From the IMG/VR virus record IMGVR_UViG_3300002098_000051, positions 1 to 50,513 of that record: a stretch of 50,513 bases of DNA; one strand, written 5' to 3'. The notes beneath the pieces are model-generated. The model ran no database searches and was not told the origin of the DNA. It saw only the letters and a program-made list of their open reading frames with translations. This document shows, piece by piece, positions 795 through 50,101 of this stretch. Each line of letters starts with the position of its first letter. Position 1 is the stretch's first letter. The position numbers and the translations under genes are program-made. The stretch is from a virus.

Positions 795-832
795 AAAAAT
801 CCATAGATAATAATCTGGATTTTTATTTTTTT
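795..832 (+). terminator. Rho-independent terminator after the junction-spanning gene
   Basis: AAAAATCCA (795-803) pairs with TGGATTTTT (816-824), followed by ATTTTTTT. It lies 15 nt after the stop codon. Confidence 0.7.
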
Positions 833-846
833 GGCATGATTAATGC
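832..846 (+). promoter_or_regulatory. sigma-54 (-24/-12) type promoter motif
   Basis: TGGCAT-gatta-ATGC with GG-N10-GC spacing, followed by TGTATATCA. The ATG at 871 lies 24 nt downstream. Confidence 0.6.
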
Positions 847-870
847 TGTATATCAGTAAAACCAAACAAA

Positions 871-1062
871 ATGGAAGACCAGGATCAAATCGAAGAATTA
901 ACTCTCGCCGAGATGCAGGATGCAATCGACGGCCTGCATAACGATTACGAAAAAACCATTGACAAAAAGGTAAAGAAACAACTGGCCGCGCAAATGAAAG
1001 CGTTAATGTCTGATTATAACGAGCGTGTCGGTTTTTTAGCTTACGACGAAGATAAATACTAA
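871..1062 (+). CDS. hypothetical small acidic protein (63 aa)
   Basis: ORF directly downstream of the promoter motif at 832, with an A-rich leader. No recognisable domain. Confidence 0.6.
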   Translation: MEDQDQIEELTLAEMQDAIDGLHNDYEKTIDKKVKKQLAAQMKALMSDYNERVGFLAYDEDKY

Positions 1063-1094
1063 AAAAAATACTTTTAATAAGGTAACTTTATTTT

Positions 1095-1964
1095 ATGAAA
1101 AAATTAGTGATATTATTTTCTGGTGGGAAGACATCGGCTATGATGACGAAGTTACTTATAGATAAATACAGAGGAAAAAGGGAAATAATAATAATATTTA
1201 ATAATACTGGCAAAGAAAAAGAAGCCACACTCGAGTTTGTAAAAAAATGTGATGAAGAGTGGCATTTAGGCGTTATATGGCTAGAGTCTATTCAACATCA
1301 CGGAGAAAGAAAAAGTGCCAGTTATAGGGTTGTCGATTTTATAACCGCAAGTCGAAACGGCGAACCGTTTGAAGATATGATAAAAAAACACGGAATACCG
1401 AATTCATCTTTCAAACATTGTAGTAGAGAATTAAAAACAAACCCTACAGTTAATTATTTAAAAGATCACCGACTCGATGAATCCGAGGTGGCTATCGGAA
1501 TAAGAATAGACGAACCTTCGCGCTTAATAAAGAACGCAAATTACAAATTTGCGATATATCCATTAGCTACAGAATGGAAAATAAATTCAGCTATGGTTCA
1601 GGGATGGTGGGCCGGACAAAACTTCAGTTTAAATTTAAAAAACTGGGAAGGTAACTGCGATATGTGCTGGAAGAAATCGAAGAGAAAACATTTGACATTA
1701 CTTCTAGATAATCCAGGTATTGCGCAATGGTGGAATGAAATGGAGATAAAGTATGGAAATTTTATCCCACCTACTCAGTCTGGCGGAAGGATTGCGCCTA
1801 TTACTTTTTTTAGAAAACACGAAAGCGTTCAGGATTTATTAGAAGACAGCAAACTGCCGTTTGATAAAATTAACGAATCTGCAATCCAGCTACACTTATT
1901 AATGTTTTTTGATCCAGAGCTAGATTCAACTGACGGCTGCGAAGAAAGTTGCGACGCAGTTTAA
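1095..1964 (+). CDS. PP-loop ATPase / PAPS-reductase-family protein
   Basis: N-terminal VILFSGGKTSAMM matches the SGGxDS PP-loop. Also has conserved-looking CSRELK and IGIRIDE..R motifs and a C-terminal Cys pair (GNCDMCW). Visibly more AT-rich than its neighbours. Confidence 0.6.
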   Translation: MKKLVILFSGGKTSAMMTKLLIDKYRGKREIIIIFNNTGKEKEATLEFVKKCDEEWHLGVIWLESIQHHGERKSASYRVVDFITASRNGEPFEDMIKKHGIPNSSFKHCSRELKTNPTVNYLKDHRLDESEVAIGIRIDEPSRLIKNANYKFAIYPLATEWKINSAMVQGWWAGQNFSLNLKNWEGNCDMCWKKSKRKHLTLLLDNPGIAQWWNEMEIKYGNFIPPTQSGGRIAPITFFRKHESVQDLLEDSKLPFDKINESAIQLHLLMFFDPELDSTDGCEESCDAV

Positions 1965-4183
1965 AAAGGTACATCATCTTCCCCTTCTTTACGATCCGGC
2001 TCCGTGTAATTTACTGGGGCCGGATTATTTAGTTTGTCCCCTGGCGTTAACTTTTCTACATAGTAGACGCTCTTCTTTGGCACGCCTTCCACACGTACCG
2101 AATGTGGCTTGAACCCCAAACTTTGCAACTCCTGCCCTATACGGTTCGGACTTAGCTTTAAACCGGTTAGCCGATCCAGTTCCACCTTAACGTCCGTGGC
2201 CGTCATTTGCTCGGCAAACTTAAATCGCTCCGGAGGGGCTGGCCGGAAATATTTGCTTATAAGCTCGTATTCATTTGTATAGCTAATATTATCCTCTGTA
2301 TTAAGAGCGAGCTCCGCGATGTCTTGCTTAGTCAACCGCCAATTATAACCGGCCTTATACAAATGATACGCAGCCATTATTACCTCTGTTTTATCTATTG
2401 TATTGTATGTAGCGTGATCGAACCCGTCGGTGGTTACCGGCAATAGTCTGGTGTTTCCGGTAGGATCATTAATGAGTTTTTTATCATTAGCTGTACCGCA
2501 TAGCACCGCCAACCGGTCGAGGTCGACATTGTTGCGCCCGTATGGTTCGCGGAGCGTGAAAACTTGTTTAGATAAAAGCTCCTTTAGACGCTTTTCGTCT
2601 TTTTTACTTTTGCCACCCATTTCGTCGTCCATGATGACGAGCTTTTGCGTCATAAGTATATCATCATCCTTACCGGCATCCAATTTGCTTTCCGCGTAGT
2701 ACGGCTGAAGTTCTTTAGGAAACAACCGGCGAAAGAATTCCGTCTTGCCTATGTTTTGCTTCTCGGATACAAACACCAACAACAAACGGCTGTGCTCGCC
2801 GAACGCCGAAGCGATCACGCCGACCAGCCATTTGGTTCCGAACTTGCGTAAATAATCGGGATTGTCTGTTTTGATCGTATTCCAAAGGTCGCCGATTGCG
2901 CCAGGGTTGTCCACCGCTACATTATCCCTGAAGTATTCATGCAAAGGATTGTAAGTAGGAGTAAAATCGCTGTTTATGATCTTGTCGAGCAATGGGTAAT
3001 CCAGCTTCTCGAAAATCTTTTTAGCGGTTACATAGATAGTATTAAAGTCTTTTTGTTGCAACGGTTTGCCATTGCTTTCAATGTAGCGGGTGATACTATT
3101 GCGCCGGAGAACGTAGTTGTGTTTCAGCCATTGCTCGACAGCGCCGACCATCGAATCGTCTGTATCTATTACGATATGATTATCAAAAACCTGATTAACT
3201 ATGTCCGTACTTTCGGACGCCGGTATTCCTTCGAATTGCTCCAGGTTTTTGATCGTGTCGGCTTTAGTGCGGCCACCTATTTGGGCCGTGCTTGCTGCCG
3301 AGGCTATTATTTGTGTTTGCTTAGAGTATAGCGGTATTCCGGCCAGTTTAATGTAATAGTAAAGCGTGGAAATAGTTATGCCGGTATTTTTGGCCCTTAC
3401 GCAGTACGTGTACTGTTTATCCGTACTGGCCCTGCTGTACTTTGCCGAGAATTGAGAAATAGCGTGATAGTATTCGCGCCCTTCTTCTGAAAACTTTTCC
3501 GCCAATGCAAAACCGCAACGAAGCCAGATCGGATAGCTTTCGCAAATATTCAAACCGCGATTAACTATTTCGTTAATAAGGTTTTCGAAATCCCCTGGCG
3601 CGTAAACTACTTTGTCTATTTTGGTTGGCGCTTTCTTTTTAGGATAGTGCGCAAACTTTGTGGACTTTTCGTTTATGTATAAACTCGGATCAAAAGAAAC
3701 ATACCTGGCCCGACTAACGTCTCGGCACGATGAGTCTACTATTATATCATAAGTTGTGTAAAGGTATTCCTGTAGCCCGTCAAACGCATCGGAGTGCCGC
3801 GCTGGGTCGATCTTAAACAATACCGCCAGGCCCGTGCCGCTAATACTTGTATAGGCCGCGTAAACGTGTTTGTCTATACATATCCGCGACTTCGTTTCCT
3901 CTGGATCGACGTCGTCTATATCTATACAGATAAGACCGGAGTGGGTTACTAAACCTTTTATATTTCTTTCTGAAAATTTACCGGATATAGTAACATAAGG
4001 GAGCTTCCCTTTTATTTTATGCCGCTCGGTTTTGTCGGTTGTTTTAGATAATGCAACACGTACCGGTAGTGCGATGTCTTGCCACTTGCCGTTACGGATA
4101 CAATCGAGAAAGAGATCGACGTTAATGTCTTTCCCGCCTGTTGTTTCCTTAATATTCGAGAATAAAGATATAACTGATTGCAT
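1961..4183 (-). CDS. DNA primase/helicase (N-terminal primase-like domain plus VirE/D5-like P-loop NTPase)
   Basis: Has Walker A (EKQNIGKTEFF) and Walker B (KLVIMDDEMGG). The N-terminal region has an acidic ICIDIDDVD motif, as in BT4734-like primase domains of Bacteroidota elements (recalled from memory). 740 aa. Confidence 0.72.
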   Translation of the reverse strand: MQSVISLFSNIKETTGGKDINVDLFLDCIRNGKWQDIALPVRVALSKTTDKTERHKIKGKLPYVTISGKFSERNIKGLVTHSGLICIDIDDVDPEETKSRICIDKHVYAAYTSISGTGLAVLFKIDPARHSDAFDGLQEYLYTTYDIIVDSSCRDVSRARYVSFDPSLYINEKSTKFAHYPKKKAPTKIDKVVYAPGDFENLINEIVNRGLNICESYPIWLRCGFALAEKFSEEGREYYHAISQFSAKYSRASTDKQYTYCVRAKNTGITISTLYYYIKLAGIPLYSKQTQIIASAASTAQIGGRTKADTIKNLEQFEGIPASESTDIVNQVFDNHIVIDTDDSMVGAVEQWLKHNYVLRRNSITRYIESNGKPLQQKDFNTIYVTAKKIFEKLDYPLLDKIINSDFTPTYNPLHEYFRDNVAVDNPGAIGDLWNTIKTDNPDYLRKFGTKWLVGVIASAFGEHSRLLLVFVSEKQNIGKTEFFRRLFPKELQPYYAESKLDAGKDDDILMTQKLVIMDDEMGGKSKKDEKRLKELLSKQVFTLREPYGRNNVDLDRLAVLCGTANDKKLINDPTGNTRLLPVTTDGFDHATYNTIDKTEVIMAAYHLYKAGYNWRLTKQDIAELALNTEDNISYTNEYELISKYFRPAPPERFKFAEQMTATDVKVELDRLTGLKLSPNRIGQELQSLGFKPHSVRVEGVPKKSVYYVEKLTPGDKLNNPAPVNYTEPDRKEGEDDVPF

Positions 4184-4628: not shown

Positions 4629-4792
4629 AACATCATTCCATTTTTAAAATCATCATAAGTCGTCGTGTCGAGAGAATTTCTTAAAAAACGATACGGATGA
4701 TAAGACCTAAATATATTCTGTTTTATCAAAAGCCATTCTGTTATTCCTTTTTCTTTTATAAATAATTTAAGATAATAAAACGGAGGTATCAT
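4598..4792 (-). CDS. hypothetical protein (64 aa)
   Basis: ATGA start/stop overlap with the upstream methyltransferase gene (4789-4792) suggests translational coupling. Confidence 0.45.
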   Translation of the reverse strand: MIPPFYYLKLFIKEKGITEWLLIKQNIFRSYHPYRFLRNSLDTTTYDDFKNGMMLWAKMQRKIK

Positions 4793-5679
4793 TTTTTAAA
4801 GATTAAAACATTTTGGTGAACTTTTACTAATTTACCTGATTTGAAAGTTTTACCGACACGCAACATTGCCGTGCCGATTGCGTTTAATAAAATAGCCTCG
4901 TTATAAAATGCCATCCCGACGGATCGGAACGCCTTGATTGTATCTGGTACAAACCCAATATATCCTCCGTCCTTGCCGCGCACCTCGCCTACAACAAAAA
5001 CTGCATAGCCCCCTGGCTTTAATAGATCGCACGCGCGTTTAATTATTGATCGGTAAGCGATCATAAACTCTGGATATTTCATGTTGCTAATATCGCCAGA
5101 TATTTCACTATACACCTCTAAGTCGGCGTAAGGTGGACAACTAAAAACCATATCATATTCTTCAAGGAAAAGGTCTTCTAAAACCAGGTTACTATCGCCG
5201 ACAATCCAGTTTGGTAAATTGTTAGGTACGATCACGTGAGCTTGCTCGTAGTTTGAGTCTATCTGCTCTTGTCTTATATCTATACCAGTGTATTTATACC
5301 CTAAATAGTTAGCAACTATTCCTCTGACGCTTCCTCCGGCGAAGGGATCAATAATAGAACCACCCTCTGGGCAAAACCAACGGTAAAGAACTTCGGTAAG
5401 CGCTGGGTCGAAGATAGATGTTTCGCTCATTGTTCCTTCGCGTTTTTTACCATACCGCTCGTCCTTAAAGAAATTAGTGGTATCATATACAACTGCATCT
5501 CGGCCCACCTCGCTCTTAATGCCTAACGTCCCCCACAAACGTTTACGCGCCTGCCACGATCCGCTTTTCGTATCAAGCACTGAAAATGGTGGCTCTATAA
5601 ATTTATCGCGAAGCAATTCATTCTCCTGAATTGGTTCGCCAAATATATCAATTCTCGATACTTTCTGGCTCTCTGACAT
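4789..5679 (-). CDS. SAM-dependent amino-methyltransferase (N6-A/N4-C type), paralog A
   Basis: Motif I (IDPFAGGSVRG) lies about 65 aa upstream of motif IV, which here reads SCPPYADLEVY (usual form is (D/N/S)PPY). Close paralog of 7312..8187. Confidence 0.72.
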   Translation of the reverse strand: MSESQKVSRIDIFGEPIQENELLRDKFIEPPFSVLDTKSGSWQARKRLWGTLGIKSEVGRDAVVYDTTNFFKDERYGKKREGTMSETSIFDPALTEVLYRWFCPEGGSIIDPFAGGSVRGIVANYLGYKYTGIDIRQEQIDSNYEQAHVIVPNNLPNWIVGDSNLVLEDLFLEEYDMVFSCPPYADLEVYSEISGDISNMKYPEFMIAYRSIIKRACDLLKPGGYAVFVVGEVRGKDGGYIGFVPDTIKAFRSVGMAFYNEAILLNAIGTAMLRVGKTFKSGKLVKVHQNVLIFKK

Positions 5680-7315
5680 TAAATCCTAATTTAATTAGTT
5701 CCTCTTTAATTTTATCGCGACACATTTTCTTATACCATCCGTTATTTCTTTTTCCCTTTAATTTACACCATTCCCGCACCTTGTCGTATGCGTTGGCGAA
5801 AATATTTTCAAGCTGCAACTCGTTTAACTCGTTTTCGGATATGGTATTACGGGCGTATTGAGCAATATGTTTTATCATCTCGAACATTGAAAAATACTCG
5901 GAGCGATCCTTAAAAAATGCTATTGTCTTATTTACGTCAATCCCTTTGGTTACTAAAATGAAGTCTGCCGGTACAATATCAACCTCTGCCGCCTTAATTG
6001 GAAATACAAATCCGCAAGGTATTTCGCCAAACAAATCATCGTCGACATAACCTTTACAAACCCTGGCGGCGGCATGGTTAATAAAATCGCATTCCGGACA
6101 ATCCTTAACAGGCGCGACGCCGTTGCCAGGTTTTTTAGGGTTAAAGAATATATCCTCCCAGTCGCGATCATCGCACCAATCGCCGTGAGCCATTGCATTT
6201 CCGCCGAGATCAATAATAGTGAAGTGTTCCTTAAACGTGCCGTCCGAATATAGGCAAGGCCTGCCGCCGCGCCCACACTTTTGAAGCCACAGCGTAACCG
6301 ACAGCATAGCAGAATTAACGATTACCGTTTGTATTGTAGGGTCGTCGAAACCGGTTGTGGCTATACCCACATTATTAAGGATCGCGTCCGGTGTATTGCG
6401 TAGCCATTTAAAGCAATCGGCACGCCACGAATCGTAGTCTCCTTTCCACCCGTCCGGTAACCAGGAATACTCCCCAGGCTGAGGAATATTTTCTCCATCA
6501 AGGTGGCGCGAATTAAAACCGGCCTCGATAAATTGCTGATTAACAAGTTTCGAGTGAGCTATGTTGGCGTTAAAGCAAAGAGTTTTCGTGCCGATGCTAT
6601 ATTTTATATATGCATCGATTGTGTTTTGCACTTGCTTCTTTTTGCTAAACATATCTCCCATAAATGACTCATCGAACTCTCCGTTCGTTATCTTTAAGTC
6701 ATTACGATTTATATTTTTGATCGCGTAAGTTCTATTCTGAACCAGGTAGCGGTCGCGCTTAGTTTTATTTAGCTCAATTAATTCCCTTATTTGCGGCCCA
6801 CATACTATATCCTCGAAGTGGTTCTTCATAGGGTCTTTCCGTGTTGATGCAATAGGCGTCGCGGTAAAACCGAGCAAGATAACGTCGTTAAAATATGGGA
6901 ATAGTTTTTTAAAGTTTCCTATGTGCGCCTCGTCTACTATAACCATTCCGACGTCCTTGATATACGGAGCGAAGTTTGGTTTTTTGATCCGGTTGTGCAG
7001 CGTCTCGACCATTGCAACATATACGTCGGCGAAACTTACTTCTTTAATCTTAGCCTGAACGGATGAACTGACTATCTCATACCATTTGTAAAGCGTTTTC
7101 CTGGTTTGATTTAAAAGCTCATCGCGATGCACCATTATAAAAACTCGCTTACCGCTTTTTTTGACATACCTATCAACGATTGTAGAAAATATAACAGTCT
7201 TACCGCCGCCGGTTGCAAGCTGGCAAACAATACGCTTTTTCCCTGCCGCTATTTTCTTAGCGACATTTAAACAATACCCCTCCTGATATGCCTCTAACTC
7301 GTTTACTGCGATCAT
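5648..7315 (-). CDS. SF2 DEAH-box helicase (ResIII-like) with a C-terminal Cys-rich segment
   Basis: Has motif I (QLATGGGKT), motif II (VIVDEAH), motif III (GFTATP) and motif VI (QKCGRGGR). The tail contains CPECDF...AARVCKG. Confidence 0.85.
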   Translation of the reverse strand: MIAVNELEAYQEGYCLNVAKKIAAGKKRIVCQLATGGGKTVIFSTIVDRYVKKSGKRVFIMVHRDELLNQTRKTLYKWYEIVSSSVQAKIKEVSFADVYVAMVETLHNRIKKPNFAPYIKDVGMVIVDEAHIGNFKKLFPYFNDVILLGFTATPIASTRKDPMKNHFEDIVCGPQIRELIELNKTKRDRYLVQNRTYAIKNINRNDLKITNGEFDESFMGDMFSKKKQVQNTIDAYIKYSIGTKTLCFNANIAHSKLVNQQFIEAGFNSRHLDGENIPQPGEYSWLPDGWKGDYDSWRADCFKWLRNTPDAILNNVGIATTGFDDPTIQTVIVNSAMLSVTLWLQKCGRGGRPCLYSDGTFKEHFTIIDLGGNAMAHGDWCDDRDWEDIFFNPKKPGNGVAPVKDCPECDFINHAAARVCKGYVDDDLFGEIPCGFVFPIKAAEVDIVPADFILVTKGIDVNKTIAFFKDRSEYFSMFEMIKHIAQYARNTISENELNELQLENIFANAYDKVREWCKLKGKRNNGWYKKMCRDKIKEELIKLGFNVREPESIEN

Positions 7316-8187
7316 TTTACTTTCTTAAATATCAGTACGTTTTGGTGTATCTTAACCAGCTTTTTGTTTTTCATATTTCCATTCGCGCGCATAGATGCGG
7401 AGGCTATTGCGTTAAGTAATATCGCCTCGTTATAAAATTGCATACCGGCGTCGCGGAAAGCGTCGATAGTATCAGGCACGAAGCCTATGTAATTACCATT
7501 TTTATCTCTAACCTCGCCTACTACGAATATCGCATAACCGCCGTCGTTAAGTTGGCGACATGCTTTATTTATTATTGATCGGTAAGATAAAAGAAACTCT
7601 GGATAATTCATATTACTAATATCCCCTGGTAATTCCGAATACACCTCGAGATCGGCATAAGGCGGACAGGAAAATAAAAGATCAAAAGTATCAAATATTT
7701 CATCCAGAACTTTGTCGCTATCTCCGGTTAACCAGTTCGGCAGGTTATTAGGTACGATTACGCGAGCTTGCTCGTAATTGCTTTCGATCTGTTCGGGCCG
7801 GATGTCTATGCCGGTATATTTGTAGCCCAGGTAATTGGCCACAATGCCGCGCACGCTACCTCCGGCAAAGGGGTCTAAAATAGTACCACCCTCCGGACAA
7901 AACCAATGATAAAGAACTTCTGTAAGCGCAGGGTCAAAGATGGAAGTATTCAGTTTTGTGCTTTCTTTATCATTATACTCCTCTTTGTTAGTATAACTCG
8001 ACGTTCCCATCGAAAAGAGTTTACAATCCCTGCCCACCTCTGATTTGATCCCCAGAAGGCTCCACATCTTTTTGCGCTTTTGCCACGATCCGGTTTTCGT
8101 ATCTAAAATAGAGAACGGCGGTTCGATAAATTTATCCCTCAGGAGTTCGTTTTCCTCGATCTCCTGGCCCCATAAGTCTAAAGCCAT
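7312..8187 (-). CDS. SAM-dependent amino-methyltransferase (N6-A/N4-C type), paralog B
   Basis: Has LDPFAGGSVRG and SCPPYADLEVY. Collinear with 4789..5679 except for one ~27-aa divergent segment and the C-terminal ~20 aa. ATGA overlap with the helicase start. Confidence 0.72.
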   Translation of the reverse strand: MALDLWGQEIEENELLRDKFIEPPFSILDTKTGSWQKRKKMWSLLGIKSEVGRDCKLFSMGTSSYTNKEEYNDKESTKLNTSIFDPALTEVLYHWFCPEGGTILDPFAGGSVRGIVANYLGYKYTGIDIRPEQIESNYEQARVIVPNNLPNWLTGDSDKVLDEIFDTFDLLFSCPPYADLEVYSELPGDISNMNYPEFLLSYRSIINKACRQLNDGGYAIFVVGEVRDKNGNYIGFVPDTIDAFRDAGMQFYNEAILLNAIASASMRANGNMKNKKLVKIHQNVLIFKKVK

Positions 8188-11973: not shown

Positions 11974-11975
11974 TT

Positions 11976-11990: not shown

Positions 11991-12014
11991 TATATATCAT
12001 GAAAACGATATAAA

Positions 12015-39880: not shown

Positions 39881-39888
39881 CAAATATA
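39881..39888 (-). promoter_or_regulatory. TAnnTTTG (-7 type) promoter box
   Basis: Minus strand reads TATATTTG, 19 nt upstream of the ATG at 39861. Confidence 0.5.
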
Positions 39889-42674: not shown

Positions 42675-42708
42675 TCGGAGTTGTGATCCGGTTAAACAAA
42701 ACCATGTG

Positions 42709-42732
42709 CCTCGATCTTTAAACGGATCGAGG
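42709..42732 (+). terminator. hairpin, weak terminator
   Basis: CCTCGATC (42709-42716) pairs with GATCGAGG (42725-42732), followed by only TTT. Confidence 0.4.
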
Positions 42733-42807
42733 TTTCGTGGTGCCAAAACAAAAACTGTATTAATTTCGAATATTAAAGATTTTTTTTTAACCGCTAAAAT
42801 TAGCAAC

Positions 42808-43287
42808 ATGCAGACAAAATGGAATGCCAAAGACAAGGGCTTCGCCCTCAAGAACAACCTGATCATCGCGCTGGTGGTGGCTAAAATTCTCGCCGAAGAG
42901 GATGAGCAAACGCCGGAGAATGTTCAGAACATCACCGAAGACGGCGATACATTCGATGACACCCAGATCTTCGCAACACCCGAAGAAGTGGGCCGCGCTC
43001 TTATCGCGGACTGGTATAAGAGAAACCCTCCTGTACAGGCCGACGCCTCGTTCAAGGTCGACAGCACCACCGTACAGGTAGGCGCAACAGCAAACGCGGT
43101 TCCTGCAACGCCAGGTGGATCGTTTTCAAGCGACAACTCTTCGGTGGCTACAGTTACCGCCGACGGCCTTATTACCGGCGTAAGCGAAGGAAATGCTAAC
43201 ATTACTTACACGGTAGCCAACCCCAACCCGACAACGGAAACGGTGGTAGGTATTACTGTAGTTCCTGCCGCCAACGCTGCGCTGTAA
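42808..43287 (+). CDS. Ig-like (Big_2-type) domain protein (159 aa; start revised to 42808)
   Basis: C-terminal VQVGATANAVPATPGGSFSSDNSSVATVTADGLITGVSEGNANITYTV fits the bacterial Ig-like group 2 pattern. The track N-terminal extension crosses a hairpin and the preceding gene. Confidence 0.6.
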   Translation: MQTKWNAKDKGFALKNNLIIALVVAKILAEEDEQTPENVQNITEDGDTFDDTQIFATPEEVGRALIADWYKRNPPVQADASFKVDSTTVQVGATANAVPATPGGSFSSDNSSVATVTADGLITGVSEGNANITYTVANPNPTTETVVGITVVPAANAAL

Positions 43288-43927: not shown

Positions 43928-43962
43928 TTAATTTTTGTAAAAGTAAGTAAAAGATTCAATAT

Positions 43963-44259
43963 TCAAAGCTCGGGCAAATCGTACCAGCCACGCAACGCAT
44001 GTGCACAATCGCTTAGATAGTTTATTCTGCCGTCCTGAACAAAAGTATGGCACAATGTCTTCTCCGGAGTGCCGGTTTGTGGGTTAGCAGGATGAAATAC
44101 ACGTATAGACGGAGAAAATGTTGGCTTATCTATATCATTATTAAAACGCCAGCACGGACTTTCCTTCGGATCGGTATTAACTGCGTGGCTATTGCCACAA
44201 CCTGGGCAATCGAACAGATATGTCCCTTTAACGTTTTGTATTTCTCTAACCTTTGCTAT
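43963..44259 (-). CDS. Cys/His-motif protein (CPGC...C...CH...DCAH; DUF6527-like from memory) lacking a canonical start codon
   Basis: The minus-strand frame is open from 44277 to TGA at 43965-43963. It reads ...IIAKVREIQNVKGTYLFDCPGCGNSHAVNTDPKESPCWRFNNDIDKPTFSPSIRVF...LCHTFVQDGRINYLSDCAHALRGWYDLPEL. There is no usable ATG/GTG/TTG (the only one is a TTG 76 codons in). An in-frame ATA at 44259 sits 4 nt after the TACTTTTA box. Confidence 0.5.
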   Translation of the reverse strand: MAKVREIQNVKGTYLFDCPGCGNSHAVNTDPKESPCWRFNNDIDKPTFSPSIRVFHPANPQTGTPEKTLCHTFVQDGRINYLSDCAHALRGWYDLPEL

Positions 44260-44263
44260 AATG

Positions 44264-44336
44264 TAAAAGTAAATTTTTTAAGTCAAAATAATTATAAAAA
44301 TAATTTTTTTAGAATAGATCGTTTTATTTATCTTTG
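44264..44336. promoter_or_regulatory. bidirectional promoter module C (partial copy of the A/T element)
   Basis: Reading left to right: minus-strand TACTTTTA (44264-44271); a 10-nt spacer; GTCAA...AAAAATAATTTTTTTAG (44282-44312); an 18-nt spacer after the T-run; plus-strand TATCTTTG (44329-44336), which overlaps the sigma-54-type motif. Confidence 0.6.
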
Positions 44337-44349
44337 GCATACTATTTGC
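44335..44349 (+). promoter_or_regulatory. sigma-54 (-24/-12) type promoter motif
   Basis: TTGGCATactatTTGCA followed by TTATATCA. ATG at 44374. Confidence 0.6.
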
Positions 44350-44373
44350 ATTATATCATAAAAAGCAATTAAA

Positions 44374-44790
44374 ATGAAACAACTAATAATAAAAGGTATA
44401 GAACTGGATTTGTTTAACTATACGGACGGCCAGGGTTTTTCTAAAAGCATAACCGATGTCGATTTGTTGGTTAGCATATTAACCGATCATAAACACGTTA
44501 CCGAAACCGTTTTGCGTAACATGGTTAACGCTATGCAATACGTTAAGGATAATAAAATGCGCAGATACATAATTCTTTTCCTTCACTTTACTAATCCGCG
44601 TAAAGGTGGCGTGCATAAGCTGCAAAAGTGTAACCAGACATTTATACGCGGCGGCGTAAAAACGCCTACCAACTGCAACCAAACCAATCTTTTTGAAAAG
44701 CCATTTAGTATATCAAGGTATAACGATTGTTTTTTACCTGGCGCAGATACTTTCCATGTTTATAACGGTAGCGATTTAGTTCGCGCTTGA
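44374..44790 (+). CDS. hypothetical protein (138 aa)
   Basis: ORF after the promoter motifs. No domain recognised. Confidence 0.55.
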   Translation: MKQLIIKGIELDLFNYTDGQGFSKSITDVDLLVSILTDHKHVTETVLRNMVNAMQYVKDNKMRRYIILFLHFTNPRKGGVHKLQKCNQTFIRGGVKTPTNCNQTNLFEKPFSISRYNDCFLPGADTFHVYNGSDLVRA

Positions 44791-44798
44791 TTACTTTT

Positions 44799-44813
44799 TG
44801 GCATGATTATTGT
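44799..44813 (+). promoter_or_regulatory. sigma-54 (-24/-12) type promoter motif
   Basis: TTGGCATgattaTTGT followed by TATATC, with the -12 element GT rather than GC. ATG at 44826. Confidence 0.55.
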
Positions 44814-44825
44814 TATATCTTATCT

Positions 44826-45233
44826 ATGAGCAGGATACTAATAGGAGGCGCGGCACTTAACCACTACGGAAGCAGCCGCCATACCGACGACAAAGATTAC
44901 CTGGTTAACATACCTACCGAGGCCGCCGCATTTTTACACGAAGATGATTGCGATCTTATCAATGCTTCCGGCCACCCCTTATTTATGGAAATATGGGAAG
45001 CCGAGCAAGGTAACGAAGTGGCAAGCGTTAAAGCGTTGCTCGATCTTAAAGCATTCGCATTCGCCCAGCATTGCATTAACCGTAAATTTCAGAAAGCAGA
45101 TGATTGTGAGTATGACATTAAGTTTTTAATCCGTATGTACGGCAGTTTGTATAGTTGCCCACGCGCAAAGAAATATCTAACTACCGGAGAATATTCCGAA
45201 CTTTGTAAAGTAATAAGATCAGTTAAATTTTAA
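44826..45233 (+). CDS. minimal nucleotidyltransferase-fold protein (135 aa; start revised to 44826)
   Basis: N-terminal ILIGGAALNHYGSSRHTDDKDYLV fits the GG.A....G(S)-x-R-x-T-x-D-x-D NTase signature. The track start at 44787 lies upstream of the promoter motif. Confidence 0.5.
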   Translation: MSRILIGGAALNHYGSSRHTDDKDYLVNIPTEAAAFLHEDDCDLINASGHPLFMEIWEAEQGNEVASVKALLDLKAFAFAQHCINRKFQKADDCEYDIKFLIRMYGSLYSCPRAKKYLTTGEYSELCKVIRSVKF

Positions 45234-45245
45234 TCTACAAATAAC

Positions 45246-45446
45246 ATGCTAACATCGCAACAAATAGAAAAACTCGCCTCCGGCAAAAACGTTAAGCGTA
45301 TAGCCGTCGAAAACTTCCTTAGTTCTTTATCTGGCAATAAGAGCGCCGACTTCGAGAATTGTAAAATGGACGCCATGTTGTATAAATGGAATGCCGCTAC
45401 CGTTACGGCTATTAATAAAGGTATAGCGTTAAATAATGGAAAATAA
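45246..45446 (+). CDS. hypothetical protein (66 aa)
   Basis: ORF in operon context. Confidence 0.45.
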   Translation: MLTSQQIEKLASGKNVKRIAVENFLSSLSGNKSADFENCKMDAMLYKWNAATVTAINKGIALNNGK

Positions 45447-45585
45447 AACAATCGACCGCACCCGTGGCGTTTATCCTTTCATGCCGATCAAACTCGAGCA
45501 CGAAAGGATACGCCAACCGGAGACGTTACAAATAACGGACGATGAAACCGGCTTAGAAACAATAATCATATATTATGGTTTACCT
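45436..45585 (+). CDS. possible small protein (49 aa), not in ORF track
   Basis: Fills the 128-nt gap between 45446 and 45575. Overlaps both neighbours by 11 nt. Confidence 0.3.
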
Positions 45586-45844
45586 GATCCACTTTGATAC
45601 GCCGCTAAAGCACGCCAGCCACTACCTCGGTTACACGCCTAATGCCGTTACCTTTATTACACGCATAAAGAACCATAAGGCTGGGCGCGGCGCAAAGATA
45701 CTCGCTGCGTGTAATGCCGCAGGTATTACGTGGAATGTTGTCCGTACCTGGCCGGACGCTGATCGCGACTATGAGCGTAAACTTAAAAAGTGTTACAACC
45801 TACCGTGTTATTGCCCTATTTGCAAAAAGAAACGTAAGAGATGA
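45575..45844 (+). CDS. GIY-YIG-like small nuclease-fold protein (89 aa)
   Basis: VYLIHFDTPLKHASHYLGYT...RIKNHKAGRGAKIL...ERKLKK resembles the GIY...YxG...R..H..G...E pattern. Has a C-terminal CYCPIC. Confidence 0.5.
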   Translation: MVYLIHFDTPLKHASHYLGYTPNAVTFITRIKNHKAGRGAKILAACNAAGITWNVVRTWPDADRDYERKLKKCYNLPCYCPICKKKRKR

Positions 45845-46110
45845 AACAAAACAACAAACGTTACAAGCTCATAACGAGCATCCGATCACAACGGAAAAGT
45901 CATTTCGCTAAAGTTGTAAAACGAGCGAAAGATTCGTCTGATAAAACTAAGTGCATCATCAAAATGATCATTAACTCATTCCCAGATGATTTTAACTCTT
46001 TCGACGAGCCGATGTATTTTGACGAGGTAACAGAATTAGATAAAGAAACTTTTGATAAACTTTTAAAACGCACACGTAATGGACATAATCGCGATCTGCC
46101 GGAAGGGTAA
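45841..46110 (+). CDS. hypothetical protein (89 aa)
   Basis: ATGA overlap with the upstream stop. Confidence 0.5.
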   Translation: MKQNNKRYKLITSIRSQRKSHFAKVVKRAKDSSDKTKCIIKMIINSFPDDFNSFDEPMYFDEVTELDKETFDKLLKRTRNGHNRDLPEG

Positions 46111-46273
46111 AAAGATTTACTCCACCACTACTAACGTTAGCATCATTCGGACGCATACCGAACGATACGAGCGCGATCACCATGGCGAAGACTTATCTAA
46201 CTATAAAGTCCTCGACCGCAATAATTGGTCGATGGACGATTCTCAACCGGACTGCCACGTGTATGTCTTTTAA
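46079..46273 (+). CDS. hypothetical protein (64 aa)
   Basis: ORF in operon context, with a 32-nt overlap upstream. Confidence 0.4.
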   Translation: MDIIAICRKGKKIYSTTTNVSIIRTHTERYERDHHGEDLSNYKVLDRNNWSMDDSQPDCHVYVF

Positions 46274-46282
46274 AATATCGTT

Positions 46283-46516
46283 ATGTTAATAATAGATTTA
46301 AGTAAGCTATTTCAATACCTATACGACTACTCGTATAATACATCAAAGAAAGAACACTACGGAGTTTATATTGTGCCGGTTGGTCTAATAAACGAAGATG
46401 AGTTTCTGTGGGAGCTATTCCAGCAAGGGTCGGGTGTAAAGCCATGCAAAGATGGTTTCGTTTATCTTATACTCTTGTTTAAAAGCACCCTAACTTATAA
46501 TTTCGGATTTCATTGA
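46283..46516 (+). CDS. hypothetical protein (77 aa)
   Basis: ORF in operon context. Confidence 0.45.
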   Translation: MLIIDLSKLFQYLYDYSYNTSKKEHYGVYIVPVGLINEDEFLWELFQQGSGVKPCKDGFVYLILLFKSTLTYNFGFH

Positions 46517-46525
46517 TTGAAAGTT

Positions 46526-46540
46526 TGGCACGTAATTTGC
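46526..46540 (+). promoter_or_regulatory. sigma-54 (-24/-12) type promoter motif
   Basis: TTGGCACGtaatTTGCT followed by GTATATCA. ATG at 46565. Confidence 0.7.
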
Positions 46541-46564
46541 TGTATATCAGGAAACACAAATGAT

Positions 46565-46888
46565 ATGCTAACATACGATATTAACGCCGCAATAGAATTT
46601 CGCTCTACAAACTCGACCGTCTTAACAGATAGCTACGACAATAAAGTTGACGTAGATTTTAAAACCAGCATCTCTTTGGCAAAAGACGAGATGTTTATGT
46701 TCGGTTATGGTTACGGAGCTATACAGCAACTCGGATTTAATAACCGCCGCGATGTTACAAAAACAGAATTTAAAGCTAAGTATTCTTCTTATCGTAAGTA
46801 TTACTTTGATATAGAAAATGATTCAGACCTTCGCAGAAGCATAGATGAAGACCAGTGCCCTGGTTGCCAATTAGGACAATATCCTTAA
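46565..46888 (+). CDS. hypothetical protein (107 aa; start revised to 46565)
   Basis: The track start at 46517 precedes the promoter motif. The first ATG after it is at 46565. Confidence 0.5.
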   Translation: MLTYDINAAIEFRSTNSTVLTDSYDNKVDVDFKTSISLAKDEMFMFGYGYGAIQQLGFNNRRDVTKTEFKAKYSSYRKYYFDIENDSDLRRSIDEDQCPGCQLGQYP

Positions 46889-46940
46889 TAATATTTAAGA
46901 TCGGGCCGAGTAGCTAATCGCAGCGAACAGTGCCAAACCG

Positions 46941-46964
46941 CCGCGTCTCCGGACGCGGTTTTTT
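46941..46964 (+). terminator. Rho-independent terminator
   Basis: CCGCGTC (46941-46947), tccg loop, GACGCGG (46952-46958), then T6. Confidence 0.85.
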
Positions 46965-46987
46965 ACCTTTACATAAATTACAAAATT

Positions 46988-47191
46988 ATGAACTTTGACA
47001 ATCTTAATGCCGGAAGTATTTTCATTTTATCATTTGCTGGTATTATCGTAAGCGCAGTAATATGGCGTGCGATCCTGGAAGTGAATTATTTTAAACGCCA
47101 GGCCAAAGCGCAAACAGAGCTCCTGCGCCTAATGGCTCTGCAGGCCGGTTGCGATCCGGCATCGGTTAACGCATTAGTTAATCAAGAATAA
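46988..47191 (+). CDS. small membrane-anchored protein (67 aa)
   Basis: TM helix SIFILSFAGIIVSAVIW. Convergent with TerS and overlaps it by 14 nt. Confidence 0.45.
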   Translation: MNFDNLNAGSIFILSFAGIIVSAVIWRAILEVNYFKRQAKAQTELLRLMALQAGCDPASVNALVNQE

Positions 47192-47762
47192 AATCTATTT
47201 CCGGCGACGGAAGTGGCGGCGGCAGGACGTATGTCTTTTGCTGCTGGGTCGTTATCGGTGTTATTACCTCTCGCCCGTTGGTTGGCAAATAAAACTGTAT
47301 GGCCCCTGGCAATGGGTTGTCCGGATCGGAACCCACCAGGCTACGCTCAACCAAACCGATGTCCTTACCAATAAACTGCGCGTTAAAGTGGCCCGTCGTT
47401 GCGCCGGTATATTTACGGTTAATGATTATATCATCTATTAACCTGATCACCTCAAGGAAATGAGGATAATTATCTTTCGCTCGTCCTTTAAACTCGGTCC
47501 AATAAATAGAGCTTACTCCCCAAAAAGTGCACATGCCGAAAATAGTATATGGCAATATGGTCGGCACCTCGTACATATCCCCTGCGCTTTCGCCGCTCTT
47601 GCTTACCTCTATTTTATACCACGGATTATCATCTACCGATTGAAAATATTCACACGCAGCCTCCCATAATATCTGCGGAGTATTGAATATTTTATCCCTC
47701 CCGTGTTTGGATCGGAGCTTCCAGTTCTGTACACCCTTTTGAAATCCGTTTGTTGTTTGCAT
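47178..47762 (-). CDS. terS: terminase small subunit
   Basis: ILWEAACEYFQSVDDNPW...PYTIFGMCTFWGVSSIYWTEF...FLEVIRLIDDIIINRKYTGATTGHFNAQFIGKDIGL fits the small-terminase HTH-plus-oligomerisation pattern (P.T..GL...LG.s..t...y...F...I........e......g.....a.F.lkn.). Confidence 0.62.
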   Translation of the reverse strand: MQTTNGFQKGVQNWKLRSKHGRDKIFNTPQILWEAACEYFQSVDDNPWYKIEVSKSGESAGDMYEVPTILPYTIFGMCTFWGVSSIYWTEFKGRAKDNYPHFLEVIRLIDDIIINRKYTGATTGHFNAQFIGKDIGLVERSLVGSDPDNPLPGAIQFYLPTNGREVITPITTQQQKTYVLPPPLPSPEIDFILD

Positions 47763-47845
47763 GATATCCCTCTTATATCTTTGTGTAAAGGTAGTAGAAA
47801 AATAAGATTATAAAAAATTTTGCAGACATATTATGAAAATTGAGC

Positions 47846-48095
47846 GTAGTAAGTGTAGTAAGCATGGAAAAAGTGGTTACTACACTTTTTCGGCACATAA
47901 AGCGTTGATAATCTTTCTATTATATATTATGTAGTAAGAGTAGTAAGTGTAGTAAGTAGAATTCGAATAACACAATGAGTGAGGAAAAAGATGCGTCGAC
48001 CCCTAATTAGGAGTGTCGTCGAGAAATTGTCTGTTTTCTACGCCTAATGAAACTCGTTACTACGCTTACTACGTCAGTACAGAAATGCCTACTAC
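47846..48095. repeat. iteron-like 8-mer array GTAGTAAG / CTTACTAC with 9-bp phasing
   Basis: Direct copies at 47846, 47855, 47931, 47940 and 47949. Inverted (G/C)TTACTAC or CCTACTAC copies at 47876, 48056, 48065 and 48088. GTAGTAA(47855)...TTACTAC(47883) can form a hairpin. Confidence 0.85.
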
Positions 48096-48204
48096 GCCGT
48101 GGATCGGGCCAGGCCTAACCCCTAATAACGCCTATACCTAATAGGTAGCCAACCCAAATAAATCGGCAAAACCGGCGAAATAATTCGGTGCCCTAATGCC
48201 TAAT
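48002..48204. repeat. CCTAAT repeat cluster including the 10-bp palindrome CCTAATTAGG
   Basis: Palindrome at 48002-48011. CCTAAT at 48043, 48121, 48137, 48192 and 48199, and CCTAAC at 48114. Confidence 0.8.
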
Positions 48205-48219
48205 TAGTATATTCGCTCT

Positions 48220-48483
48220 ATGCTAAAGATCGACAAAGGTGTACCGGCCCCCAAACGGGCACAAAAGCTAAACGCGGACGAAAAGAGCAGGAGGCTAATG
48301 GAAATGAAGGAAATGCTCACCTTCCTTGAGGTTGGCGATTCTACCGTCTTTACAACCGAGAATATTTCGGCATGGAGGGTCGCGTTCTGCAACCTGGCCA
48401 AAACGCCGGAACAAAAGCTGATGGAATTTAGAACCGCCGCCGCCGAAAAGGAAAACGAATACCGTATCTGGAGAACGAAATGA
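48220..48483 (+). CDS. hypothetical protein (87 aa)
   Basis: First ORF after the non-coding repeat region. Starts with IDKGVPAP. Confidence 0.5.
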   Translation: MLKIDKGVPAPKRAQKLNADEKSRRLMEMKEMLTFLEVGDSTVFTTENISAWRVAFCNLAKTPEQKLMEFRTAAAEKENEYRIWRTK

Positions 48484-48662
48484 TAACAAAAGCAAAACTG
48501 ACGCAAGCGCGTGCGCTATTGCCGGAACTTGAGCATAGGGCGTCCGTGATCCATAATAATAAAAACCCACACGAGTTGTCGATCAAACGGGAACGGGCTG
48601 CTGGTATTATATCGAAACTGAATATATTGTTAACCCCTTTTGTAATTTCATTAGACAGATGA
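48480..48662 (+). CDS. hypothetical protein (60 aa)
   Basis: ATGA overlaps at both ends. Confidence 0.45.
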   Translation: MITKAKLTQARALLPELEHRASVIHNNKNPHELSIKRERAAGIISKLNILLTPFVISLDR

Positions 48663-49309
48663 TAATAAGAGAAAAACCTAAATTATTAGATTTATACTGT
48701 TGTGCAGGTGGCGCAGGTTACGGATACGAACAGGCTGGTTTTGATGTTACTGGGGTAGATATAACAGAACAACCGAGACACAAAGGTAAATTTATAAAAT
48801 CAGATGCGATAGAATATTTAAAAGCAAATTATAAAAAATACGATGCAGTGCACGCCTCTCCGCCATGTCAAGAGTATTCTATGTCATCTTTGCAATTTCG
48901 AGTCGCAGGAAAAAAATACGATGATTTAATAAGTGTTACTCGCGACGCTTTAATTAAAACCGGACTACCTTATATAATTGAAAACGTCCCTGGTAGTCCG
49001 TTAATAAATCCCATCACTTTGTGCGGATTAATGTTTGGAATGAAAACATACAGACATAGATTATTCGAAAGTAATATATATTTAAAATCGCCTAAACACG
49101 ATAAGCATATACACGCTAACGCAAAGATGGGAAGAAAAGTTAAAGACGATGAGTTTATCCAATATGTTGGTCATTTCTCGGGAGTAAAGCTCGTGCAAGA
49201 AATGACTGGTCTTTATTGGTTGGGTCAAAAGGAATTAGCGCAATCAATACCACCACAATATACAAAATATTTAGGCGAACAACTAATAAACTTTTTAAAA
49301 AATAAATAA
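48659..49309 (+). CDS. compact C5-cytosine DNA methyltransferase-like protein (216 aa)
   Basis: Has motif I (LDLYCCAGGAGYG), motif IV (ASPPCQEYS), motif VI (IIENVPG), an RHRLFE (motif VIII-like) and a C-terminal AQSIPPQY (motif X-like). There is almost no room for a target-recognition domain. Very AT-rich. Confidence 0.65.
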   Translation: MIIREKPKLLDLYCCAGGAGYGYEQAGFDVTGVDITEQPRHKGKFIKSDAIEYLKANYKKYDAVHASPPCQEYSMSSLQFRVAGKKYDDLISVTRDALIKTGLPYIIENVPGSPLINPITLCGLMFGMKTYRHRLFESNIYLKSPKHDKHIHANAKMGRKVKDDEFIQYVGHFSGVKLVQEMTGLYWLGQKELAQSIPPQYTKYLGEQLINFLKNK

Positions 49310-49710
49310 TGCTAACCGAAAGACAAATAGCTGCGCGAGCAGTACTGCTGGGCCGGAAGTGGGATAATGAGGATCAAATGACGAGCGATCTTTTCCAATA
49401 TACATTTAATTATCATCCGGCGCTTCGCGGATTATTTTTTCATGTGCCAAATGGTGGTGCGCGATCTATGCAAGAGGGGGCAAAATTTAAGGCGATGGGT
49501 GTGACGCCAGGGGAACCTGACTTCGTTAATATGTATCGTGTGCCGTGCGGCGTGGAGTTAAAGATGGAAAAAGAGCGTAAAACTAAAAACGGCGGTTTGT
49601 CTCCTGATCAAATGATGGTGCACGCGCAATGGCGTGCGGCAGGCCGCGAGGTTTATATAGCATATACGGCGGAGGAATATTTATCAATACTCGATAATCA
49701 TATATTATGA
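49309..49710 (+). CDS. VRR-NUC domain nuclease
   Basis: FFHVPNGGARSMQEGAKFKAMGVTPGEPDFVNMY...GVELKMEK...LSPDQMMVHAQWRAAGREVYIAYTAEE fits the VRR-NUC pattern (PNGG...G..G.PD...ElK...LS..Q..w). Confidence 0.75.
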   Translation: MLTERQIAARAVLLGRKWDNEDQMTSDLFQYTFNYHPALRGLFFHVPNGGARSMQEGAKFKAMGVTPGEPDFVNMYRVPCGVELKMEKERKTKNGGLSPDQMMVHAQWRAAGREVYIAYTAEEYLSILDNHIL

Positions 49711-49901
49711 GAAATAAACCAAAGATATTTGTCGTTATCGTTGACTTCCCTGGTAACGACTGGCCGGTTGGCAAACCTATGGTGTTAAATCAATACGACG
49801 CCGATCTAAAAGAAATGTGGGGTCAAAGCAAGGGCCGCACATTCTGGGAGCATAAATTTAAAAAATATCCTGGTGTTTATAAAGAGATAACAAATGAGTA
49901 A
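49707..49901 (+). CDS. hypothetical protein (64 aa)
   Basis: ATGA overlap with the upstream stop. Confidence 0.45.
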   Translation: MRNKPKIFVVIVDFPGNDWPVGKPMVLNQYDADLKEMWGQSKGRTFWEHKFKKYPGVYKEITNE

Positions 49902-50094
49902 ATTCCTAACCGGTTGCACCGTTCGGCATAAGCTACACAATACGGTTGTGGAGGTTTTGCCGGTTAAACCAATGGACGACGATTGTTTTGCTGGCCGTTA
50001 CCTTTATATCGAGAACGACTTTTTATATGAGGCCGGTAAAGCGCACGATGACTTTTTATTAAATAATTTCGATTTGATTGATTATTTGGCATGA
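49894..50094 (+). CDS. hypothetical protein (66 aa)
   Basis: ORF in operon context. Its stop codon lies inside the next promoter motif. Confidence 0.45.
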   Translation: MSKFLTGCTVRHKLHNTVVEVLPVKPMDDDCFAGRYLYIENDFLYEAGKAHDDFLLNNFDLIDYLA

Positions 50095-50101
50095 TAATTG
50101 T
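50087..50101 (+). promoter_or_regulatory. sigma-54 (-24/-12) type promoter motif
   Basis: TTGGCATgataaTTGT followed by ATATTAATCA, with the -12 element GT rather than GC. ATG at 50127. Confidence 0.55.

Follow-up and report, generated by a model that had tools for sequence, protein, structure and literature searches.

Ten -24/-12-type sites in a circular siphophage genome are probable promoters for the host sigma-54 polymerase

Which RNA polymerase reads a motif that a phage repeats ten times along its genome? The question is raised by IMG/VR virus record IMGVR_UViG_3300002098_000051, all 50,513 nucleotides (nt) of which were analysed here (hereafter, the window). Because one open reading frame (ORF) of 388 amino acids (aa) reads through the junction of its ends, the window is a closed circle, that is, a complete siphophage genome of ~50.5 kb. 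A first-pass annotation had listed nine sites, all on the plus strand, that resemble the -24/-12 promoters of sigma-54 (RpoN). All nine proved real in position and sequence, and a tenth plus-strand site, at 13923, had been missed; we number them P1 to P10 along the window. Our answer is that these ten sites are probably promoters read by the sigma-54 polymerase of the host, and that the genes behind them are accessory and early-type.

The pattern TGGCAY-N5-TTGY occurs 10 times in the window against 0.39 expected (standard deviation 0.60; maximum 3 in 100 dinucleotide shuffles), and relaxing its second half to (T/A)TGY gives 11 matches where chance predicts 0.71. When a position weight matrix (PWM) derived from the window sites was run over both strands of the window, the sites scored 19.0-25.5 bits and the best other position, on either strand, 13.3. 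The GG-N10-G(C/T) spacing, described as invariant for the nine listed sites, is constant at all ten. Four sites (11976, 14011, 32225, and 46526) match the RpoN consensus YTGGCACG-N4-TTGCW perfectly, as had been noted, and one further site misses the final W only. Departures from the extended consensus at -12 are T at four sites and ATGC for TTGC at one. In addition, a repeat finder arrives at the family unaided: its 43-nt group D2 contains seven of the sites, and D16 is made up of the 832/44799 pair; the eighth copy listed for D2, at 40873, is not a promoter site.

How are the sites placed? The core is asymmetric, every site is oriented towards an ORF, and the distance to the ATG is nearly fixed. 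Nine of the ten lie 13-27 nt 5' of the ATG of a plus-strand ORF, so the earlier description of sites just upstream of start codons stands. Counted from the end of the motif, the ATG is 23-27 nt away at eight sites; the two exceptions are 44799, with 13 nt, and 13923, with 115 nt. A second block, TATATCA, had been reported to follow the core at each of the nine listed sites. It is exact at five of these (832, 11976, 32225, 44335, and 46526) but approximate at the other four (TACATCA at 14011, TCTATCA at 36762, TATATCT at 44799, and TTAATCA at 50087), and there is none at 13923. The minus strand, where no copy had been found, has no high-scoring one but does hold a single loose match at 13744-13758(-), TGGCATAGGCATTGT, which lies antisense within an ORF, scores <10 bits, and is at chance level.

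Some sites resemble one another well beyond the core. P2 and P5 are 93% identical over the 43 nt of D2, with 36 nt of promoter and leader identical; the shared stretch (11969-12011 and 32218-32260) lies ahead of unrelated ORFs. Short inverted repeats that are specific to the site also bracket the core: TGATATA/TATATCA at P2 (11966-12000), GATAGA/TCTATC at P6 (36752-36785), and TGATTA/TAATCA at P10 (50077-50112). At about half of the sites, an upstream TGAT is complementary to the ATCA of the TATATCA block.

Which host would supply the polymerase? Several features of the window point to the Bacteroidota. The portal protein shares ~25-33% identity with its counterparts in phages of Bacteroides, Parabacteroides, Alistipes, Croceibacter, and Flavobacterium, and the BT4734-like and DUF3127 domains found in the window were counted towards the same phylum. 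A Shine-Dalgarno-like core stands before just 5 of 56 genes, and the A content of the 20 nt before start codons is 46% vs a genome average of 29%. Boxes of the form TAnnTTTG, the mapped sigma-A -7 box in Flavobacterium (PMC9723704), stand ahead of the late and replication operons.

Mapped sigma-54 promoters are available for this phylum. In Flavobacterium psychrophilum, RNA sequencing of 5' ends yielded a motif, SM4, described as “the typical -24/-12 elements of sigma-54,” which drives groES/EL, lon, dnaK, grpE-dnaJ, htpG, clpB, skp, and remFG-sprCDBF, the last of these promoters having been validated through mutagenesis (PMC9723704). The species has one rpoN, constitutively expressed, only three activators of the PF00158 family, and a chaperone cluster with a high basal level of expression (PMC9723704). 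Examples from the supplement of that study are the promoters of htpG (TTGGCACGGTAGTTGTATATTA), groS (TTGGCATAATTTCTGA), clpB (TTGGAATAACAATTGA), remF (TTGGCACGATTTTAGT), and panD (TTGGCACGAAAAGTGC). In Flavobacteriia and Bacteroidia more widely, a cross-phylum study with position-specific scoring matrices found that the sigma-54 regulon it predicted is enriched in chaperones, proteases, and ribosomal proteins (PMC12316311).

The phage sites and the SM4 promoters have in common a leading TT, the GG with a further G 11 nt past the second, and a variable -12. A T at -12 is unusual in compilations of Proteobacterial sigma-54 promoters. In the SM4 set, the -12 base is T (htpG, remF, T_0009, and T_0015), A (groS and clpB), or C (panD), and the four TTGT sites of the phage are therefore no deviation within the phylum. 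An A/T-rich stretch follows -12 both in the phage sites and in the htpG promoter; P10 (TTGGCATGATAATTGTATATTA) differs little from the htpG promoter, which it resembles in the core and the following ATATTA. The SM4 motif begins at position 22-24 of the 61-nt windows in the supplement, and if the mapped start is assumed to be at position 51, then transcription begins ~13 nt (+/-1) after the -12 position. With this spacing, the phage sites would have A-rich leaders of 9-15 nt, and P8 one of ~0.

Could the sites simply be promoters of the primary sigma factor? Reading TTGGCA ... TATATCA as an E. coli -35/-10 or a Bacteroidota -33/-7 pair was rejected: the spacer is 10-12 nt, or 15-17 nt if measured from TTTG, which is too short for either sigma-A geometry, and the TTTG of -7 is missing. 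None of the sites has TAnnTTTG at -7 of its predicted start, and a scan of the window for promoters of the E. coli -35/-10 type was at background (51 found vs 45 expected in shuffles). The most telling places are P5 and P6, which share divergent regions with late operons. The late operons have their own sigma-A -7 box there, TACATTTG at 32159-32166(-) and 36697-36704(-), but no plus-strand TAnnTTTG lies upstream of P5 (32070-32224) or of P6, so the motif itself must be the promoter. Taken together, the sigma-A boxes and the -24/-12 sites give the genome two distinct promoter classes.

Primary-sigma boxes (TATCTTTG) do touch the 5' ends of two sites, P4 (box at 14005-14012) and P7 (box at 44329-44336), and of these two only. 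This overlap would suit a different arrangement, in which the sites would be operators bound by a phage regulator such as the helix-turn-helix (HTH) protein encoded at 14052-14600, while transcription came from weaker promoters nearby. Two tandem copies ahead of the HTH gene, as in autoregulation, and the short inverted repeats around the core at P2, P10, and P6 are in keeping with it. We nonetheless consider operators very unlikely. Operators would hardly have an asymmetric core that keeps one orientation and one distance to the ATG, the inverted repeats around that core vary in sequence and position between sites, P5 and P6 lack the alternative upstream promoter that the idea needs, and the motif is the sigma-54 consensus.

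What do relatives of the phage keep? Close ones are few. A megablast search of GenBank phages with the whole window gave no match, and 45 nt of promoter, searched there in distant mode, gave no meaningful one. The exact 24-mer is not in IMG/VR, where the relatives reached through the portal are only 34% identical and carry no motif, and where the 365-aa protein of the window gave no relatives. In a large protein collection, portal homologues range from 68% identity downwards. One independent Logan assembly (L005) is of the same phage, with an identical P6 site. The closest relative found is a European Nucleotide Archive (ENA) scaffold, here L006, which covers 15 kb of the structural region and has a portal 64% identical to that of the window. 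It contains four exact motif matches, all with the GG-N10-G spacing. In each case a small ORF opens with its ATG 12-37 nt downstream; two of the matches (1571+ and 1795+) run along the structural genes and two (6760- and 12781-) against them. The first-pass annotation had attached meaning to the strand bias, but since L006 has the motif on both strands, the rule in the window merely reflects which genes are served.

L006 conserves the TGGCAY-N5-TTGY core alone and not the flanks, the TATATCA block, or the cargo ORFs; this is the pattern expected of a -24/-12 promoter. At P5, motif and small ORF are syntenic with their counterparts in L006, between genes for proteins of 301/299 aa and 355/353 aa, and the small proteins are unrelated. 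It thus appears that the predicted promoter type is kept while its cargo is exchanged. The 36 nt shared by P2 and P5, together with the non-homologous cargo in L006, suggests that cassettes bounded by promoters have been swapped by recombination at the repeated promoter.

The conserved leaders, identical over 36 nt at P2 and P5, and the constant 23-27 nt to the ATG also bring to mind an element that works as RNA, such as a translational operator or processing site shared by the 5' untranslated regions ~25 nt before the start codons. Against this, the distance to the ATG is 12-37 nt in L006, the folds differ from site to site (z-scores from -2.7 to +1.1), and no promoter lies upstream of P5 or P6 from which the motif could be transcribed. 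The candidate was rejected, as no Rfam family, no tRNA, and no common fold was found. Operators and RNA elements are thus both unlikely, the latter extremely so.

Motif statistics, fixed orientation and distance to the ATG, and a core that L006 shares without sharing the cargo are the reasons for reading the sites as -24/-12 promoters, along with the lack of a sigma-A promoter upstream of P5 and P6 and the match to mapped sigma-54 promoters of Bacteroidota. They support the core of the first-pass interpretation, though not the temporal class that it also envisaged.

How widespread is the motif? Among relatives of the window, not very. No promoter-like site was found in the loci L007-L011 or in the phages B124-14, P2559S, and Fpv5; Fpv5, a cultured F. 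psychrophilum phage, has no strict site, and its relaxed matches lie solely within annotated genes. Across 80 phage loci from metagenomes (762 kb; primase 37-57% identical), there were 10 loose and 6 strict matches, which is chance level, and none was promoter-like. These loci make a good empirical background for the pattern, and they show that among the relatives of the window the class is confined to a narrow lineage.

Outside these relatives, the core turns up again. We retrieved IMG/VR loci with two exact 15-mers (198 loci, 1.66 Mb) and, leaving the seed site of each locus uncounted, found 105 further TGGCAY-N5-TTGY sites vs 13-23 in Markov controls. Unrelated low-GC contigs from uncultivated phages (94-363 kb) carry 3-6 sites on the same strand, 26-120 nt (mostly 26-52) upstream of ORFs. 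Such clusters were seen in L053 (a 116-kb contig with six sites in 3.6 kb), L160 (a 148-kb contig), L163, L097, L098, L186, L187 (a 122-kb contig), L205, L137, and L057, and on these low-GC contigs the -12 element is mostly TTGT. A tblastn search with all proteins of the window against the IMG/VR loci rich in sigma-54-type sites found no shared proteins and no common candidate factor, and megablast of L160 and L163 against GenBank phages found no cultured relative. That unrelated phages share the core and differ in its flanks favours one universal reader in the host over many private phage factors.

Two other arrangements were noticed in the retrieved loci. L043 (IMGVR_UViG_3300010413_000237), a contig of 58% GC, has six tandem copies of TGGCAC-N5-TTGC at 26-27-bp spacing in 1000-1133, and a family of contigs of 45% GC (L031, L033, L034, L038, and similar ones) has two overlapping sites, TGGCACAGATATTGCtatTGGCACGGTAATTGC.

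If sigma-54 reads the sites, what opens them? Alone among bacterial sigma factors, sigma-54 cannot open DNA without an ATP-driven AAA+ activator, which is usually bound to an enhancer 80-150 bp upstream. We searched every ORF of at least 50 aa with Pfam, the small ORFs as concatenates, and the ten largest ORFs plus thirty on the plus strand with PHROGs. These scans found no Sigma54_activat (PF00158), sigma-70, sigma-54, or RNA polymerase domain, and a six-frame search with regular expressions found no GAFTGA, RpoN box, or DxDGD. Walker A motifs were matched by the same kind of expression in TerL and in four other places without ATPase context. Sequence searches of the PDB with three proteins of unassigned function gave no match, and the 220 bp 5' of the sites share no k-mer beyond random expectation. 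The statement that the phage has neither an enhancer-binding protein nor a sigma factor therefore holds at Pfam and PHROGs sensitivity; remote homologues of a polymerase or sigma factor may escape such searches. Since no phage ATPase was found, the ATPase is a host protein, or the mechanism is unconventional, if sigma-54 is indeed the reader. A host activator may work in solution or from degenerate sites on the DNA.

The obvious candidate for a regulator on the phage side is the HTH protein of 14052-14600, though it is no ATPase. Its matches are phrog_517, phrog_1303, a weak one to phrog_836 (“late transcriptional activator”), and a weak one to HTH_7, and its gene stands behind the two strongest sites, the tandem P3 and P4. 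The protein also has a histone-H1-like (A/P)KKAA repeat, encoded by five tandem 18-nt units at 14241-14357. Of the larger proteins of the window, a 478-aa protein adjoining SSB resembles a recombination protein, with proline-rich linkers after a globular N-terminal half, and the 365-aa protein is rich in coiled coils.

It is important to remember that several observations weigh against sigma-54. Although it strictly needs an activator, the phage ORFs include no activator ATPase and the sites share no upstream enhancer. T replaces C at -12 in four of the ten sites, which is, however, usual in Flavobacterium. The leaders expected for the phage sites are very short. The TATATCA block lies outside the sigma-54 consensus and is not kept in L006, so a phage protein could bind there. 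The restriction to one lineage fits a newly acquired specificity factor of the phage equally.

Such a factor would make the sites a promoter class specific to the phage, served by a divergent sigma factor, a MotA-like activator acting with sigma-A, or a small RNA polymerase that we did not recognise. TATATCA would then be an element of the -10/-7 kind, and the likeness to -24/-12 coincidental or convergent. The conserved block of 24-25 nt is of the size seen in phage-specific promoters, TATATCA is kept beyond the sigma-54 core, and a narrow lineage is what one would expect once a new factor had been acquired; many ORFs are without detectable homologues, and the HTH protein with its weak phrog_836 match is encoded behind the two strongest sites. 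We still judge this, the main rival to host sigma-54, unlikely. Neither a sigma factor, an RNA polymerase, nor the DxDGD motif was found in the phage ORFs, L006 keeps the GG-N10-G core and not TATATCA, and the same core recurs with other flanks in unrelated phages of 32-62% GC. The distance from TTGG to TATATCA is too short for a Bacteroidota -33/-7 promoter, which would also have the missing TTTG. Finally, four perfect matches to the 11 positions of the sigma-54 consensus, together with the fit to mapped Flavobacterium promoters, make coincidence unlikely.

How, then, might transcription by host sigma-54 proceed? There would be two classes of phage promoter, sigma-A (TTG ... TAnnTTTG) for the replication and structural operons and TTGGCAY-N5-TTGY for about nine short plus-strand units. 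Sigma-54 would contact the GG and, 11 nt beyond its second G, a further G, and the A/T-rich TATATCA block would fall in the stretch that is melted. An activator of the host would open the complex at the expense of ATP, and transcription would start ~12-14 nt after the last motif base, giving leaders of 9-15 nt that are rich in A and have no Shine-Dalgarno sequence. The activator would most plausibly be one that keeps the sigma-54 regulon of groES/EL, dnaK, htpG, lon, and clpB high in Flavobacteriia, and expression of the accessory genes, including its timing, would then track sigma-54 activity in the host.

A bolder proposal, which we regard as rather unlikely, is that one family of Bacteroidota phages, perhaps along with many unrelated uncultivated ones, expresses an entire early or accessory class of genes from sigma-54 promoters that dispense with an enhancer-bound AAA+ activator. 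Promoters that are A/T-rich and often lack C at -12 may open unaided, or a new kind of small phage protein may unlock the closed complex of sigma-54. In a softer version, the phage may tap the sigma-54 activator of the heat-shock or proteostasis response of the host, with the stress of infection switching its genes on.

Which genes would be served? The ORFs behind the sites encode small proteins of unassigned function, the HTH protein, a PAPS-reductase-like enzyme, and a Cys-X-X repeat protein. P1 (832..846, TGGCATGATTAATGC then tgTATATCA; predicted start ~858-860) is preceded immediately 5' by a weak hairpin and T-run at 795-831, read from the sequence, and followed by 871-1062 (63 aa) and 1095-1964, the PAPS-reductase-like gene (Pfam PF01507, phrog_424). 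P2 (11976..11990, with the perfect core tTGGCACGGTAATTGCt then TATATCA; predicted start ~12002-12004) leads 12015-12299, 12268-12534 (KTSC domain), 12605-13702, and 13702-13998. P3 (13923..13937, TGGCACGATAATTGC; 25.1 bits) lies inside the 3' end of the last of these ORFs, 88 nt 5' of P4, and forms the tandem pair with it. P4 (14011..14025, perfect core; predicted start ~14037-14039) precedes the HTH gene, 14662-15294, and 15305-15742 (cupin-like, phrog_4786).

P5 and P6 stand among the late genes. P5 (32225..32239, perfect core then TATATCA) serves a single 58-aa ORF, 32262-32438, which opposes the late genes between a 355-aa gene of the capsid region and the 301-aa gene, and an unterminated transcript may run antisense into the latter (32508-33413). 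P6 (36762..36776, TGGCATAGTATTTGT) serves a 70-aa ORF, 36799-37011, which likewise opposes the late genes and adjoins the gene for the large terminase; its transcript may run antisense into terL (37094-38698). No terminator-like site follows 32438 or 37011 in the 70-83-nt gaps to the next late gene, and antisense readthrough (32239-33413 and 36776-38698) could control late genes.

The remaining sites cluster towards the end of the window. P7 (44335..44349, TGGCATACTATTTGC then atTATATCA) is the first promoter of an array of small ORFs at 44374-47191 and closes a control region of ~450 bp, 43928-44373, which is probably non-coding and divergent. The 104-aa “ORF” at 44047-44361 is an implausible low-complexity, hydrophobic and basic sequence without homologues. 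P8 (44799..44813, TGGCATGATTATTGT) heads 44826-45233 and small ORFs up to 46516; with just 13 nt between P8 and the ATG at 44826, the mRNA would have little or no leader, and none of the ten ORFs checked for this unit has a PHROG match. P9 (46526..46540, with the perfect core TGGCACGTAATTTGC then tgTATATCA) serves 46565-46888, downstream of which is a terminator-like hairpin at 46940-46959. P10 (50087..50101, TGGCATGATAATTGT then atatTAATCA) precedes the Cys-X-X repeat gene, which runs from 50127 to 50513 and continues in frame at 1-780 over the circle junction; this is the 388-aa ORF by which the circle was closed. The gene holds ~75 tandem 9-nt units that encode Cys-X-X (CSGCSDCSR...), after which comes a C-terminal domain matching phrog_31265 (unknown function).

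Most of the rest of the genome is on the other strand. The late genes are indeed there, as first described, but so are replication genes and the small-terminase-like gene. The minus strand encodes a primase-helicase (1961-4183; BT4734-like N domain, PriCT_2, VapE), a helicase, two paralogous DNA methylases, and a DNA polymerase III beta clamp (the sliding clamp, 8487-9608), in addition to a structural block with portal, TerL, and tape measure and the GP3_package small-terminase-like gene at 47178-47762. The paralogous N6/N4 methylase genes (4789-5679 and 7312-8187) flank the helicase gene and are ~70-76% identical in nucleotides over blocks, and a third methylase, of the C5 type, is encoded at 48659-49309 in a plus-strand operon.

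Besides the boxes opposite P5 and P6, sigma-A -7 boxes were located before a third late operon (TATATTTG, 39881-39888(-)) and after two long elements. A 33-bp AT-rich element ending in TTGAC at 9836-9868, followed by TACGTTTG at 9818-9825(-), is a canonical sigma-A promoter of the Bacteroidota kind and drives the replication operon on the minus strand; its perfect inverted copy at 41708-41740 (repeat I2, 100% complementary), followed by TACATTTG at 41751-41758(+), drives 41775-43287. With their TAC(A/G)TTTG boxes, these two look like strong sigma-A promoters of the UP-element type. A third AT-rich element, 75% similar, is found at 44285-44340 (inverted repeat I1), just upstream of P7. Finally, the non-coding ~460 bp at 47763-48220, between the small-terminase-like gene and the operon beginning at 48220, hold many iteron-like copies of GTAGTAAG / CTTACTAC and CCTAAT(A/G) repeats, and could be an origin, a pac site, or an array for binding of a regulator.

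Why should such sites matter? Ten sigma-54-type promoters without an activator of the phage's own raise the question of which protein opens them during infection. The phage may couple its accessory genes to the proteostasis or envelope-stress state of the host, which, if true, would be a new kind of regulatory link. The Bacteroidota are an ecologically and medically important phylum in which phage transcription is almost unstudied, and the clusters in unrelated metagenomic phages suggest that the strategy is commoner than the literature implies. If the prediction is right, these compact and strong promoters could also serve as genetic parts for Bacteroidota.

How does the class compare with known systems? 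Classes of promoter specific to phages include those of T7-like RNA polymerases and, in T4, the middle promoters with their MotA box and the late ones served by gp55, gp33, and gp45. Like these, the window has a conserved motif of ~25 nt at a fixed distance from gene starts that defines a class of genes. T4 late transcription is enhancer-like and the present phage, too, encodes a sliding clamp. Unlike in T7 and T4, no phage RNA polymerase, sigma factor, or MotA/AsiA-like protein was detected, and the motif is the consensus of a host sigma factor.

The nearest likeness is to the SM4 class of F. psychrophilum, which has the same TTGGCAY-N5-TTG(N), invariant in the GG and the G, tolerates T or A at -12, is A/T-rich after -12 as in htpG, and coexists with TAnnTTTG sigma-A promoters, as in the phage. 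What differs is that the present sites are borne by a phage, occur as ten copies in 50 kb, are far more similar to one another than host promoters are, and would have very short leaders; they have no shared upstream enhancer and no cognate activator that we could find, and their dependence on sigma-54 is a prediction.

The first-pass annotation called a phage class built on sigma-54-type promoters unusual, and this has to be toned down, given the precedent of phage YuA, the use of sigma-54 at highly expressed chaperone genes in Flavobacterium, and the clusters in unrelated phages. Use of sigma-54 by phages has been called “rare, not unprecedented,” and YuA is described as strictly dependent on the sigma-54 of its host (Ceyssens et al. 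2008, as cited in PMC5053324 and PMC10914365). An ONT-cappable-seq study associates one YuA promoter (P015) with a sigma-54-like region, beside a sigma-70-like one and a separate phage-specific motif (PMC10914365). YuA, a virulent siphophage without an RNA polymerase of its own, resembles the present phage in using the sigma-54 holoenzyme of its host for part of its programme; it differs in having one sigma-54-like promoter vs a class of ten sites here, and a host in the Pseudomonadota vs the Bacteroidota. For phages of Bacteroidota, we found no published report of sigma-54 promoters.

Morons and the PeSL cassettes of T4 likewise consist of a promoter and a small ORF between structural genes, at hot spots such as those between terL and a head gene or in the capsid region. 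P5, P6, and the four cassettes of L006 are moron-like in that the cargo varies between relatives while the type of promoter stays, and recombination could be favoured by the repetition of the promoter sequence. The cassettes here have a promoter of the sigma-54 type, where known morons have one of the sigma-70 type, and the other sites of the window head or punctuate a long early-type array and are not isolated insertions. What is new here is thus a known type of promoter at an unusual scale, in an unusual place, and without its usual partner.

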